From Eledone cirrhosa (Eukaryota): a stretch of 64,000 nt of DNA. How positions within the stretch are numbered: the stretch's first letter is position 1; the number at the start of each line of letters is the position of its first letter. The notes beneath the pieces are model-generated. The model searched no databases. It saw nothing but the letters and a program-made list of their open reading frames with translations, and had not been told where the DNA came from. Positions 1,831 through 61,770 of this stretch are shown piece after piece. Made by a program: the position numbers and the translations under genes. Location of the stretch: positions 208,196,001-208,260,000 of the forward strand of contig OZ024740.1 of assembly GCA_964016885.1 (NCBI GenBank), read 5' to 3'.

Positions 1831-2137
1831 ATATATATATATATATATATATATATATATACATATATATATATATATATATATATATAGTTCTTCATTT
1901 TGGCGTGAATTCCTTTTTCTTTTATATATATATATATATAGAGAGAGAGAGAGAGAGATAATTTAATATATCTACTAACATAAGCGCACAGATGTACGCT
2001 AATGCCAGCAAATACACAGGTTATGTCATAGTACCTAGGTGGTTCAATGCAGGAGGATGCAGAACAATAATATAAAAGACGTAAAATAAGAAAATTTTTT
2101 TTAAAAATTTTAAAAAATTAACTTACTTAAATTTTCA

Positions 2138-2217
2138 CTCCAACTAATTAGTTTCTGCAATGGGATAAAGACAGTTACGTAATGAACTGTTGAGAATTTC
2201 ATTGCGTCATCAGGGAG
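2138..2217 (-). ncRNA. Type I hammerhead ribozyme
   Basis: Minus strand: ctcc CTGATGA c-gcaatg..(long insert)..cattgc-a GAAA ctaattag TT ggag. Palindromic stem III. Confidence 0.85.
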
Positions 2218-2692
2218 GTCTATTCTCAGCCAAGTCTCCAGGCAATGCGCGGACACTGGGGACTCATATAAAAATAATAATAATTCGGTAAATGGAACAG
2301 CTATCGAGGACTGGATTCCAGGCACTGAAAATTCTCACTGCCACCGGTCAAATGGCCGATTCTAAAGAATCAATCACGTGACACAGAGGCTAGTCAGTAG
2401 GAATGTGATGGTAAGATGACAGACGCCTACTAACACCCCACAAAAAAATTTTTTTAGTAGTGGTTTTGGCAGGTTTGCTCGACAAATCAGTGATTTGGAG
2501 ATAAATATAGATCATTTAATATATCTACTAACATAAGCGCACAGATGTACGCTAATGCCAGCAAATACACAGGTTATGTCATAGTACCTAGGTGGTTCAA
2601 TGCAGGAGGATGCAGAACAATAATATAAAAGACGTAAAATAAAAAGTTTTTAAAAAAATTTTAAAAAATTAACTTACTTACTTAAATTTTCA

Positions 2693-2772
2693 CTCCAACT
2701 AATTAGTTTCTGCAATGGGATAAAGACAGTTACGTAATGAACTGTTGAGAATTTCATTGCGTCATCAGGGAG
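2693..2772 (-). ncRNA. Type I hammerhead ribozyme (second tandem copy)
   Basis: Same motif as 2138-2217, 555 nt away. Confidence 0.85.
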
Positions 2773-3135
2773 GTCTATTCTCAGCCAAGTCTCCAGGCAA
2801 TGCGCGGACACTGGGGACTCATATAAAAATAATAATAATTCGGTAAATGGAACAGCTATCGAGGACTGGATTCCAGGCACTGAAAATTCTCACTGCCACC
2901 GGTCAAATGGCCGATTCTAAAGAATCAATCACGTGAAATTCTCAACAGTTCATTACGTAACTGTCTTTATCCCATTGCAGAAACTAATTAGTTGGAGTGA
3001 AAATTTAAGTAAGTAAGTTAATTTTTAAAAAATTTTTTTTTAAATTTTCTTATTTTACGTCTTTTATATATATATATATATATATATATATATATATATA
3101 TATATATATATATATATATATATATATATATATAA

Positions 3136-3411
3136 TTATTAAAAATGTAAACTATCGCCGTATTTTGACTAAAGAAATTAAAGAAATTATTTAGCCTGAT
3201 AGTGGGCTTAAGAACCCTCGGAGAAATGGAAAAAGATGAGTATTGACGTACATGGGAGTCGAACGGATAACCAAAGATATGGGTTCGACTCCCATGTACG
3301 TCAATACTCATCTTTTTCCATTTCTCCGAGGGTTCTTAACCCCACTATCAGGCTAAATAATTTCTTTAATTTCTTTAGTCAAAATACGGCGATAGCTGAC
3401 ATTTCTAATAA
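3136..3411. repeat. Fold-back element (~128-bp arms, 18-nt loop) abutting (TA)n
   Basis: 3136-3264 is the near-perfect reverse complement of 3283-3411. Same family as 29087-29253. Confidence 0.85.
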
Positions 3412-3442
3412 TTTCAAACCCACTCGCTGTGTGTCTGTGTAT

Positions 3443-4322
3443 GAGAGATATATTTACACCTGTCTCTAACTAAAAACATAGCCAACTGTCTACAGTAAAC
3501 TAAATGTGTGCACTCTGAAAATTTGATTGCAGCTGCATAACTGCAATTCGCCAGATTCATTGAGTGAGTTAGACGCTGTATTTATACAAGCGATCTTCGT
3601 TACTTTTGTTATATTATACTCTCGGCTGCGCTGATTTGGAACTCCTGTATAAGGTTAGGCTTTTCAGTATTTCTTGTTTATGTTTCCTAAAATTACATTT
3701 TGAGTATTGAAAATTTGAGTTTGTATCACAAATCAGATTATATTTGCTTGTATATGTGAATATATGCATGAACCTCGTTATCTATGTATGCACATGTGCA
3801 TTAAGCCGGTTGAGTTCTTCATTTTCGTGTGAATTCCTTTTTCTTTTTAATTCAACTGCCAAAATCACGTGTTATGGTCTGCAAGAAATTCTTCCTCTTT
3901 TCATTAGAGGCAGAGTTGGGGCGTGCCGTGAACTGCTGTATAGCTTATCCAATAGTGAAGGCTGGCTCACACTGCACGGAACTATTACATAATATTGGGG
4001 AATCCTGCTGAAGACGTGTAACAGGTCCGATTGCATAAATATCCCCTGATTTGACGTGATTTTCTGAACATTGCAGAAGTAAAATCTTCATTTGTAAAGT
4101 TATATTATACAGAAACGTCGTCTAGGAGGGAGATATTTACATCTATCTCTAACTAAAAACACTAGCCAACTGTTTACAGTAAACTAGATGCGTGCACTCT
4201 GAACAGTTGATTGCAGCTGCATAACTGCAATTCGCCAGATTCATTGAGTGAGCTAGACGCTGGCCGGGGGGGGGGGGGGGTACGCTGTATTTATACCACC
4301 GATCTTCGTTACTTTTGTTATA
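3443..4322 (+). mobile_element. Non-coding ~690-bp unit with a ~180-bp terminal direct repeat and one HHR
   Basis: 3443-3613 is repeated at 4130-4322. The HHR lies immediately before the second repeat. Ends in (TA)n. Confidence 0.75.
4003..4127 (+). ncRNA. Type I hammerhead ribozyme with large stem II insert
   Basis: tcctg CTGAAGA(4008-4014) c-gtgtaa...ttatac-a GAAA(4112-4115) cgtcg TC tagga. Confidence 0.65.
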
Positions 4323-4535
4323 TATATATATATATACGTATGTATACGTACATACATATATGTATACAGACGTACAGTAGTATGTATATATACATACATG
4401 CACACATATATATATGTACGTATGGATTCACCAAACATTTATTATAATGCTCGGTGTGTTTGTAAACAAACATCCCATATTAAACCGTAGTTTCTAGCAA
4501 CCAGCGTTGCTCGCTTGTTCAACACTGACACAGGA

Positions 4536-59925: not shown

Positions 59926-60327
59926 TAATGTCTGTGTTTAATATTTATTATATATATTTCTGTCTATTTCTATGTGATATTCCACTATAAGACCTTGGCC
60001 TATTGGTCGGCATTAAAAGATCAATAAGCGGTTTTTTTTCCGATACCTTTCATGTATTTCAGCTTTTTCAGCTTCACCAGCAGAAACTTTTGTTGTTCTT
60101 TAATATCGATATCGATCTACATTTTTTCAATATACTTAGATTTTTTTTGTTATTATTATTACTTTATTTAATAAATAATAGAAATCATTGGCAGAATCTG
60201 CACAGAGTTCTGAGTTCAAATCAGGCCGAGGCTAGCTTTGCCTTTCATCTTTACGGGGTCGTTAACCTTAAGTATCAGTAATACCCTTTACCTTCCCCTC
60301 AAATTGTGGGCTTTGCGCCTAAATCAG

Positions 60328-60530
60328 AGGTGGATTGGCAGTATCGGTAGAGGGTCGGACGCCATGCTTTGACGCATAGAGTTATGGTCCTTGCCATTCT
60401 GAGTTCAAATCCCGCCGAGGTTAACTTTGCCTTTCATCCTCACGGGGTCGATGAAATAAAGTACCAGTAATGTACTGGATAATTGCTGGCCTTGTGCCAA
60501 AAGTAGAAACAATTATTATTATTATTATTA
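60328..60530 (+). mobile_element. tRNA-derived SINE, preceded by an older copy at 60185-60325
   Basis: Near-identical to 46582-46790. Confidence 0.9.
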
Positions 60531-60811
60531 TTGTTGTTGTTGTTGTTGCTGGTGGTGTTGTTAATGATGTTGTTACTGTTGTTGTTAATGATGTTGTTAC
60601 TGTTGTTGTTAATGATGTTGTTACTGAAATCACTATTAATATCATTACGGATATTATAAAAATAATATAAATAATATAAATGAATATATATATATATATA
60701 TATATATATATATATATATATATATATATATATATATATATATATATATATATATATATCATTGACTGACCAACGGTCAAAAATACGATACAACAGGAGG
60801 AACATAATAGT

Positions 60812-60852
60812 ACCACTGATGATGTTGGAGATGTGCAACGAAAGAACTTTGT
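60812..60852 (+). ncRNA. Hammerhead-like motif, weak stem I
   Basis: CTGATGA t-gttg-gagatgtg-caac GAAA gaac TT tg, in a short island between (TA)n tracts. Confidence 0.5.
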
Positions 60853-61003
60853 TAGACTATATATATATATATATATATATATATATATATTTATATCTGT
60901 ATTTTTGACCGTTGGTCAGTCAATGATAAACATTGAGGACCAAATGAATTAACTGTGGAGATATACAAGATAGAGAAGCGAAAACCAACCAAACAGTGAG
61001 TGT

Positions 61004-61500
61004 GGCAGTTTTTATCTGTCTGGTGGCCATGGCGAAAGAGATAGCATGGTGGACACGTTTGAAAGGGCTGAAGACGAGCACTTACCTCTTCGGTGATGCT
61101 CTGATTGCCTTTTTCAAATTTCATTTGAAAAGGAAAATCAGGGTAGAGAGGGAAGTGCTCTCTTCCCAGCATTTTGTTGAAAGATGGGTGAGAGAAGCAA
61201 GAATGGCCCGAGTGAATGGGCCTACTCTGAGTACGTATCTGTAAATTAAAGGTGGAAAACTGGGAGAGGGCACTTGCCTTGGTGGTCAGGGTCATTGTGG
61301 CCTTTTACTGGGCTTTCTCCACAAATGTCCCTCCGAAGACTCCCCCCTATTGGGGAATTTTTCATTGTTATTTTTTGTTACATCCTCTGTTTTTGTTCTT
61401 TACACGCAGAAATGCCCATTTGTACCGTCCTGTATTGTCCTGCACTGTCCTTAATGTCTACTTTATGTAAACCCTTGTGGTTAATAAATAAATCATTATT
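61004..61500 (+). mobile_element. 5'-truncated copy of the Tx1-like LINE
   Basis: Highly similar to the reverse complement of 8590-9072. Encodes the ORF2 C-terminus. AATAAA and a short ATTATT tail. Confidence 0.95.
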
Positions 61501-61570
61501 TCTGGCAATATTATTACAACAATATGACCCTCCCCAAGTATAACTATATATATATATATATATATATATA

Positions 61571-61770
61571 TAACAAAGGAATTGTGGTAAGGAATCAGAT
61601 GGACAATAACGCACCAGAGTACTCAATACTTAGGGTAGTAGAGTGGGAAATTGGAAAAAGTATTACCCCGACGGCAGAGCTCAAGCCGTTTCGACGGCTA
61701 TTTCTGGACTCAGTCCAGAAATAGCCGTCGAAACGGCTTGAGCTCTGCCGTCGGGGTCATACTTTTTCCT
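61571..61770. mobile_element. Mini fold-back of the 37413-39310 family
   Basis: Homologous to 37413-37553. Near-perfect palindrome centred at ~61710 containing only the HHR 3' half. (TA)n on both sides. Confidence 0.88.

Follow-up and report, generated by a model that had tools for sequence, protein, structure and literature searches.

Head-to-head fold-back insertions of Penelope-like elements at (TA)n runs in a 64-kb window of the Eledone cirrhosa genome

The 64,000-nt stretch of Eledone cirrhosa contig OZ024740.1 analysed here (the window, to which all counts refer) is AT-rich animal DNA, dense with microsatellites, short interspersed elements (SINEs) and many fragments of Penelope-like elements (PLEs). 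Its repeat landscape may resemble that of octopus genomes. Eight listed fold-backs in it, FB1 to FB8, are very probably ordinary PLE insertions into (TA)n runs in the standard head-to-head inverted form, one of them belonging to an autonomous element and the rest to six other, apparently non-coding families. The fold-backs were located by self-BLAST and pairwise alignment of their arms, and an inverted pair was present in 8/8 intervals. As an orientation marker, we built a descriptor of the type I hammerhead ribozyme with a threshold score of at least 12. It predicted 16 hammerheads from the sequence of the window, against 0–1 in each of five shuffles. The marker was validated by FB6, in which a GIY-YIG open reading frame (ORF; Pfam PF01541, E 5.6e-5) and a hammerhead lie on one strand. 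Among the 150 of 218 Rfam matches listed, the hammerhead family was absent, and these structures drew sub-threshold microRNA (miRNA) and small nucleolar RNA matches only.

FB1, FB2 and FB7 contain partial tandems, and their short inverted arm is nested within the long arm, ending ~107, 61 and 47 nt earlier, respectively. The long arm of FB1 (1961–2937, minus strand) is a partial tandem of a ~554-nt non-coding hammerhead unit (1961–2513 and 2514–2937, cores at 2213 and 2768). Its short arm (2935–3069, plus) shares a 3-nt overlap at the inner junction, and the right end at 3069 overlaps the (TA)n run at 3065–3134 by 5 nt. In FB2, the short arm (4337–4611, minus; core at 4572) has a 5-nt (TA)n overlap beyond one mismatch, and the long arm (4612–5129, plus; partial tandem 4612–4698 and 4699–5126) has the same 3′ end as a solo copy at 52723–53147. 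The short arm of FB7 (56541–56653, minus) meets at its outer end the 3′ end of an older PLE (53350–56540), with only TA between them, and its long arm (56652–57078, plus) is a partial tandem of 56652–56785 and 56786–57078 with a hammerhead core at 56916.

FB3, FB4 and FB6 are staggered: the short arm exceeds the 3′ end of the long arm by 137, 77 and 49 nt, respectively, and the long arm reaches 0.5–2.1 kb further 5′ than the short one. The short arm of FB3 (22721–23020, minus; core at 22968) carries a 137-nt tail that is confirmed as element sequence by 18453–18587. The long arm (23021–25293, plus) spans 2.27 kb with internal repeats and a core at 25185, and shares its 3′ end with a solo copy ending at 20455. 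Tiles and strand bias, which switches there, place the inversion at ~23020, correcting an earlier position of ~25133; the central part of FB3 is assigned to the right arm, as 9/9 informative tiles (of 10) score higher on the plus strand against the solo copy. That ~2-kb solo copy of the FB3 family (18420–20455, plus) begins and ends at the short end site and is apparently one unit length.

In FB4, a short arm (37416–38110, minus) with a degenerate-core hammerhead at 37596 carries a 77-nt tail common to FB8. The element inverts within 38110–38175; the junction (38109–38175) is a perfect 33-bp hairpin and the site of the strand-bias switch. The long arm (38143–39309, plus; core at 39208) ends 18 nt beyond the predicted cleavage site, at the same base as the right arm of FB8. 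Left of FB4, a small unoriented fold-back (37273–37381; 20-bp arms, 3-nt loop) lies between two TA runs. The long arm of FB6 (49782–50742, minus) is the 3′ end of an autonomous PLE, with a C-terminal GIY-YIG ORF (50284–50742) followed by a hammerhead core at 49983. Its end is that of a solo copy at 18317, and lies within 2 nt of that of another at 61545. The FB6 junction (50716–50769) is a perfect 27-bp palindrome of ORF sequence, followed by a 3-nt overlap with the short arm (50767–50946, plus), which has a 49-nt tail past the end of the long arm. The ORF fixes the assignment of the arms in FB6.

FB8 belongs to the FB4 family. Its left arm (61573–61709, minus) has the 77-nt tail and end point of FB4, and its right arm (61710–61770, plus) forms a perfect 46-bp hairpin with it (61665–61757) and ends at the FB4-right base with no overlap to (TA)n. 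FB5 is probably nested, with an uncertain left end. The left arm (39361–40160, minus; core at 39549) shows homology to the right arm over 39442–39722, its inner limit being set by strand bias only, and 39361–39441 is an unconfirmed tail reaching (TA)n. The right arm (40453–40729, plus; core at 40626) has the 3′ end of a solo copy ending at 1828 and a 5-nt (TA)n overlap; the inner junction is placed only to 40160–40452. A first tally of five staggered cases was reduced to three once strand bias had reassigned FB5 and FB8 had proved nested. The FB3, FB4 and FB8 tails were matched elsewhere, whereas those of FB5 and FB6 found no further match in the window. A ninth fold-back (60760–60928) has a minus arm (60760–60793) that abuts (TA)n with a 3-nt overlap, and on its plus side a degenerate hammerhead below the descriptor threshold.

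All arms end 18–270 nt past the predicted hammerhead cut. That the arms end at different points, as the earlier note on this DNA had stated, holds for 7/8 fold-backs; in FB5 it depends on 39361–39441 being element sequence, which no other copy confirms. Six perfect hairpins of at least 18 bp occur in the window: the inner junctions of FB4, FB6 and FB8, two that are (TA)n-centred, and the small fold-back at 37273 beside a TA run.

The left arm is on the minus strand and the right arm on the plus strand in 8/8 fold-backs (p = 0.004 under a coin-toss null), or in 7/7 when FB4 and FB8 are counted as one family (p = 0.008). FB1 to FB7 were oriented by a predicted hammerhead, FB6 also by its ORF, and FB8, which has only the 3′ half of a hammerhead, by 89–92% identity to FB4. 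Adjacent opposite-strand SINE pairs up to 4 kb apart served as a control; two of five were divergent and three convergent. No contiguous convergent fold-back was found in the window. The one convergent same-family pair (20300–20455, plus, and 22721–23020, minus) is 86% identical and 2.3 kb apart, and therefore represents two separate insertions. The earlier note's polarity was thus a correct observation, well above chance. As a rule it is not new: it is the published standard form of PLE insertions (PMC3846280 and PMC8557442, in the text available), already known to PLE specialists.

The ninth fold-back agrees in polarity, as judged by eye from its degenerate hammerhead. Five further palindromes are without orientation, so that exceptions to the polarity may exist: the hammerhead descriptor yielded no marker for 3135–3413, 29087–29261, 40775–40862 and 63485–63654, and the fifth lies at 37273–37315. 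The first two of these belong to one family and share the anatomy of the fold-backs; their centres differ, their left ends lie at (TA)n and their right arms are the longer. The palindromes at 40775–40862 and 63485–63654 are imperfect and ~10% diverged.

Thirteen of the 16 outer ends lie within 2 nt of a (TA)4+ run, or 14 if FB5 starts at 39361, against a background of 1.1% of positions outside runs that lie that near one. The earlier note's claim that most outer ends abut (TA)n, and that both outer ends are element 3′ ends, is borne out. The misses are FB1-left (21 nt away, after (GA)n), FB7-left (at the older PLE) and FB5-left as first listed (86 nt away). FB1-left and FB7-left retain a single TA, as if the cut had fallen at the margin of the run that now lies to their right. 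(TA)n stands at both ends because the insertion was into a (TA)n run, and since nearly all the insertions lie inside such runs, target-site duplications are unreadable. The non-inverted PLE at 53350 likewise abuts (TA)n (53298–53349) at its 5′ end. (TA)n runs act as repeated landing sites. FB4-right and FB5-left face each other across one TA run (39309–39360), as do the 3′ end of a family-6 copy and FB8-left across another (61490–61572). A further, non-inverted family (5196–5337, 41045–41190 and 57164–57325), with hammerhead-like cores at 5291 (minus), 41067 (plus) and 57277 (minus), also has its 3′ ends facing TA runs.

Arm-to-arm substitutions in FB1 to FB8 are 3.1, 4.7, 0.6, 1.5, 1.5, 0.8, 1.2–6.0 and 3.1%, respectively, and family copies at other loci differ by 7.7–14.2% (12 comparisons). 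Since the arms are closer to each other than to copies elsewhere, each fold-back is read as one insertion and not as a read artefact. Each inversion halts at the ends of the element, with no mirroring of the flanks past (TA)n. Diagnostic sites for a separate short-arm template were sought in FB1, FB2 and FB7: FB1-right is mosaic in homopolymer tracts only, and FB7-left has a 29-nt block that unit 2 lacks, a difference that could stem from a later deletion.

An endonuclease-containing PLE combines a reverse transcriptase (RT) with a GIY-YIG endonuclease at the C terminus. FB6 carries the GIY-YIG part only; both domains are found in the neighbouring element at 53350–56540 (plus), a decayed, non-inverted autonomous PLE with frameshifts and stops. 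Its protein is 47–53% identical to a 753-aa homologue, and the named homologues of its RT (54399–55364) come mostly from bivalve molluscs. No ORF of the PLE kind was found in the other seven fold-backs. The FB6 ORF has two cysteines between the conserved Tyr and YIG and histidines downstream, in agreement with the PLE endonuclease definition excerpted from PMC8557442. Upstream of GIY-YIG it has a CX2-5CxxC motif, and a similar motif occurs in 101/120 homologues of the neighbouring PLE. The sense-strand type I hammerhead of PLE pseudo-long terminal repeats (pLTRs) is predicted in 7/8 fold-backs, and an inverted 5′-truncated copy at the 5′ end is present in 8/8. The partial tandem that forms pLTRs occurs in FB1, FB2 and FB7 and was not seen in the other five. 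The one-sided extensions, confirmed as element sequence in FB3, FB4 and FB8 and unconfirmed in FB5 and FB6, measure 47–137 nt, compared with an optional tail of 30–40 bp in the published accounts available.

In the text of PMC8557442 at hand, CX2-5CxxC precedes GIY-YIG in the Naiad, Neptune and Nematis clades, and (TA)n is a preferred Naiad target. Target and motif here both recall Naiad. Naiad, however, has an N-terminal endonuclease and no canonical hammerhead, and the C-terminal endonuclease and predicted hammerhead of FB6 indicate that it is not a Naiad. The combination of CX2-5CxxC with a C-terminal endonuclease is shared with Neptune and Nematis, as compared by motif. Miniature inverted-repeat transposable elements (MITEs) and fold-back DNA transposons have symmetrical terminal inverted repeats with fixed ends. 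We rejected this assignment: the ends are offset in 7/8 fold-backs, and inversion points vary within one family.

A retrozyme has at least two consecutive tandem units, each with a full type I hammerhead, and no ORF, and is further marked by self-cleavage and circular RNA. FB1 has the tandem layout, with its two predicted cores at 2213 and 2768; FB2 and FB7 each have one full hammerhead unit and a partial one. Elsewhere, three tandem 483-nt units that are 98% identical (51248–52694), with high-scoring predicted plus-strand hammerheads at 51675 and 52158, form a retrozyme-like array followed immediately by a solo copy of the FB2 family. Retrozymes are described as derived from PLEs, with rolling-circle amplification favoured, in the available text of 10.64898/2026.07.22.740005. 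Non-LTR retrozymes there resemble FB1, FB2, FB7 and the 51248–52694 array in their short non-coding tandem units with type I hammerheads. Unlike in that account, the copies here have inverted arms and tails of the PLE type, which suggests that PLE proteins mobilise them.

Inverted pLTRs are known for PLEs, as the earlier note had stated, and are listed as a PLE curation feature (PMC8969392, in part). In excerpts of PMC3846280, Penelope of Adineta vaga has pLTRs in direct and inverted orientation, one of the inverted ones bearing a 31-bp tail, and junction palindromes; head-to-head is given as the commonest PLE arrangement, and self-priming on an antisense template is proposed. PMC8557442, again as excerpted, describes an inverted 5′-truncated copy at the 5′ end with a one-sided 30–40-bp tail, calls the PLE cycle undefined and states that the origin of the tandem and inverted structures is unresolved. 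The published elements, to the extent that these three sources describe them, and the fold-backs are alike in the partial tandem, the 5′ inverted truncated copy, the head-to-head polarity, the junction palindromes, a one-sided tail-like extension, the hammerhead near the 3′ end and the AT-rich targets. They differ in that tails and offsets here are 47–137 nt rather than 30–40, the copies mostly look non-coding, nearly all lie in (TA)n, and at least nine occur in 64 kb.

The arm ends recur at particular element positions. FB4 and FB8 are 8–11% diverged and have different junctions, yet both end points are in common. The long arms of FB2, FB3 and FB6 end at solo-copy ends (four solo copies, one 2 nt short). 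The idea that a long arm always ends at a solo-copy site was not retained as a general rule: it holds for these three and is ambiguous in FB5. In element coordinates, no more than 140 nt separates the two arm ends of a fold-back although long arms reach 2.3 kb, and the probability of such clustering by chance is 8e-5 (a rough, post hoc estimate from seven cases, FB8 left out).

For microhomology, the start of each TA run was mapped onto the element, whose continuation is known for 12/16 ends. The (TA)n overlaps on the left and right are 0 and 5 nt in FB1, 5 and 3 in FB2, 3 and 1 in FB3, and 2 and 1 in FB7; single ends give 3 (FB4-right), 5 (FB5-right), 4 (FB6-left) and 0 nt (FB8-right). The total of 32 nt exceeds the 11.8 expected (p = 0.003, 12 ends), and 7/12 ends reach 3 nt; on the other hand, 4/12 overlap by 0–1 nt. 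Overlap at a shared end site varies from copy to copy: 3 nt at FB4 against 0 at FB8, and 4 nt at FB6 against 4 and 0 at solo copies. The short arms of FB1, FB2, FB3 and FB7 overlap (TA)n by 5, 5, 3 and 2 nt (p = 0.02), but ends recur at fixed sites with 0 nt. The end position seems to be set by the element, with target pairing as a helper. Priming through microhomology, as put forward in the earlier note, fits the enrichment, but overlap is not required.

Two-strand priming at an opened (TA)n run may explain these features; it ranks first among the mechanisms considered, though we hold it only in even balance. The GIY-YIG endonuclease would open both strands of the run, and the PLE reverse transcriptase would extend each freed 3′ end on sense RNA from one source locus, the template being perhaps either two units within a single tandem transcript or a pair of transcripts brought together by a dimer. 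The end positions observed 18–270 nt downstream of the hammerhead cut, at element-fixed sites, would be where each copy starts. Pairing over a few TA bases would help the start without being needed. Before joining, one cDNA would often fold back and copy 27–46 nt of itself; the single-stranded cDNA ends would then be joined by the 1–3 nt of microhomology seen at the junctions, the order of events and the enzyme being presumed. Two cDNAs growing inwards would leave 3′ ends outside and 5′ ends inside, hence the head-to-head polarity.

Polarity alone does not discriminate, since head-to-head copies would result from twin priming, from cDNA snap-back and from a pre-formed hairpin alike. The staggered arms of FB3, FB4 and FB6 are more telling, because one folded-back cDNA cannot give them. 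A cDNA that starts at the solo-copy start cannot supply a tail beyond it, so the second arm needs its own RNA start, or else the ends were cut from a longer intermediate. Together with ends at fixed family sites, the staggered arms favour priming from both target strands. The perfect hairpins at the FB4, FB6 and FB8 junctions show that snap-back also acts. The routes may therefore be mixed, with snap-back at the joining step and sufficient for the nested cases.

Several observations weigh against two-strand priming, and most of them suit its closest competitor, a single priming event in which the first cDNA (or an antisense RNA, as excerpted from PMC3846280) folds back and copies itself, and the new strand is joined to the remaining (TA)n end through microhomology with a TATA-like site, again head-to-head. 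For five of the eight fold-backs, which are nested (FB1, FB2, FB7, FB8 and probably FB5), a second priming is unnecessary. The junctions of FB4, FB6 and FB8 are perfect hairpins (3/8), and such junction palindromes are read as self-priming in the available part of PMC3846280. The 5-nt overlaps at the short-arm ends of FB1 and FB2 and a looped-out stretch of 160–180 nt in both would also follow from one priming. The tails of FB5 and FB6 have no second copy as confirmation, and the overlap count is sensitive to method: as corrected, it passes over an adjacent mismatch at two ends, and a stricter count that stops at upstream mismatches gives 16 against 9.8 nt expected, which is not significant (10 ends, p = 0.11). 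TATA-like sequence at the recurring ends may also be a relic of earlier targets. The short-arm tails of FB3, FB4 and FB6, on the other hand, would be impossible from one priming unless the first arm had been trimmed exactly to the solo-copy end, and FB8-right ends at the FB4-right base with no target overlap, unlike a random joining point. We consider single priming unlikely, yet deserving of serious attention.

Priming of both cut strands, the twin-priming-like proposal of the earlier note, is accordingly retained in part: the staggered FB3, FB4 and FB6 and the end pair of FB4 and FB8 support it, and the 5/8 nested cases fit snap-back equally. The self-complementarity of (TA)n, which that note had made the basis of priming, is not needed at FB1-left or FB7-left, and TA-centred hairpins show that such ends fold back. 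Overall, the two-strand mechanism is plausible and has partial support, and microhomology is reduced in it from a cause to a helper.

The fixed ends, one-sided tails and hairpin junctions would be explained together if a palindromic intermediate were formed off target and the endonuclease cut it at two staggered pLTR sites before integration, the tail being a resolution product as in the excerpted account of PMC8557442. We regard this as improbable. The tail boundaries described in the accessible part of PMC11167929 are RT start sites on target-primed products in vitro, and the enriched target overlap would be unexpected from pure cutting and joining.

Later repair, in which breaks at or near (TA)n beside an existing copy led to fold-back copying by a host polymerase without reverse transcriptase, is a very doubtful source of the fold-backs. 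The (TA)n-centred hairpins at 18364–18419 and 46049–46116 do attest to (TA)n ends folding back and copying the sequence beside them, and short fold-back inversions at L1 sites are ascribed to DNA polymerases in the available text of PMC10191854. Repair scars should nevertheless give palindromes with TA at the centre, arranged tail-to-tail wherever a 3′ end is followed by (TA)n, and the eight fold-backs are element-centred and head-to-head. SINEs in the window have no such polarity, and repair could not produce the tails. The hairpin at 18364–18419, a perfect 28-bp palindrome of flank sequence at the 5′ end of the solo FB3-family copy, has the look of a (TA)n end of the target which, prior to joining, had folded back and copied 16 nt of its flank. 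The other ends the 5′ side of a minus-strand element (45674–46116; degenerate hammerhead at ~46042) in a 34-bp perfect hairpin that may be a fold-back or a repair scar; since it is TA-centred and possibly a scar, it was kept out of the polarity count.

Chimeric reads or assembly errors are a most improbable source: such structures trouble assemblies (PMC8557442, as excerpted) and the arms of FB3 and FB6 are >99% identical, but 6/8 arm pairs differ by more than 1%, the tails match independent copies, and the element ends at which the unmirrored inversions stop recur elsewhere. Two independent same-family insertions landing back to back can be dismissed almost outright: the families are dense in the window and one convergent same-family pair lies only 2.3 kb apart, but the divergence between arms is 2- to 20-fold smaller than that from other copies, no (TA)n separates the two arms where they join, and the polarity is uniform (8/8).

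The nearest experimental system for two-strand priming is the PAc protein of the Anolis carolinensis Poseidon element. As excerpted from PMC11167929, PAc cleaves AT-rich DNA and in vitro both cuts and extends the two strands; a dimer is predicted, and synthesis begins at two internal sites, which delimit the tail and have no homology to the target; the later steps of that system are described as unvalidated. The AT-rich target and the two RT starts downstream of the hammerhead that bound a tail are features the fold-backs share. That study is in vitro and, in its available text, does not derive inversion from two-strand priming, and start–target overlap is enriched here but not there.

The resemblance to twin priming of L1 is looser. 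Ostertag and Kazazian (2001) are said to have proposed that both target ends prime, so that the outer ends are cDNA starts and the inner junction has short microhomology. A twin-primed L1 inversion consists of two segments of a single RNA that do not overlap, with poly(A) at the end primed first, a second start at a chance site of internal microhomology, and no palindrome. In the fold-backs, by contrast, the arms duplicate the 3′ region, overlapping by 60–600 nt, both starts cluster near the hammerhead, and the ends have no poly(A); an L1-type twin-primed inversion was therefore rejected. The working may resemble twin priming, but this is not an L1-type event. L1 twin priming is cited in the accessible parts of PMC10191854 and 10.1101/2024.12.14.628481. 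We found no paper tying PLE inversion to twin priming in a search whose reach left out much of the older Penelope literature, and the available text of PMC9977147 and PMC13282606 adds nothing on mechanism.

A bolder version of two-strand priming, which we put forward tentatively and with less than even confidence, is that PLE insertion is routinely two-ended: a dimer would prime both (TA)n strands, at a main start and at a second fixed site 50–140 nt away, and the two cDNAs would be fused via a snap-back hairpin. If true, a single event would account for three features that the available literature explains separately or leaves open, namely the inversion, the tail on one side and the palindrome at the junction, and non-coding hammerhead elements would be shown to move by this PLE route. 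A genome with at least nine such insertions and at least seven families per 64 kb would offer thousands of events, and counting nested versus staggered arms, paired end sites and microhomology would cheaply separate two-strand priming from self-priming. For annotation, such fold-backs can be mistaken for MITEs or miRNA hairpins.

Other features of the window include a long L1/Tx1-type ORF2 on the minus strand with endonuclease and RT domains (8832–12272). Its frame is uninterrupted over 1146 codons, with an ORF1-like frame upstream (8832–13855 in all), and a 3′ fragment at 61004–61492 (plus) is 94% identical to this element. A 72-nt minisatellite array of ~3.3 kb with a strong G skew occupies 33243–36560. 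An isolated minus-strand hammerhead-like motif (48426–48464; score 13.5) is flanked by a (TA)(GA) run at 48268 on one side and by a TA run at 48643 on the other.

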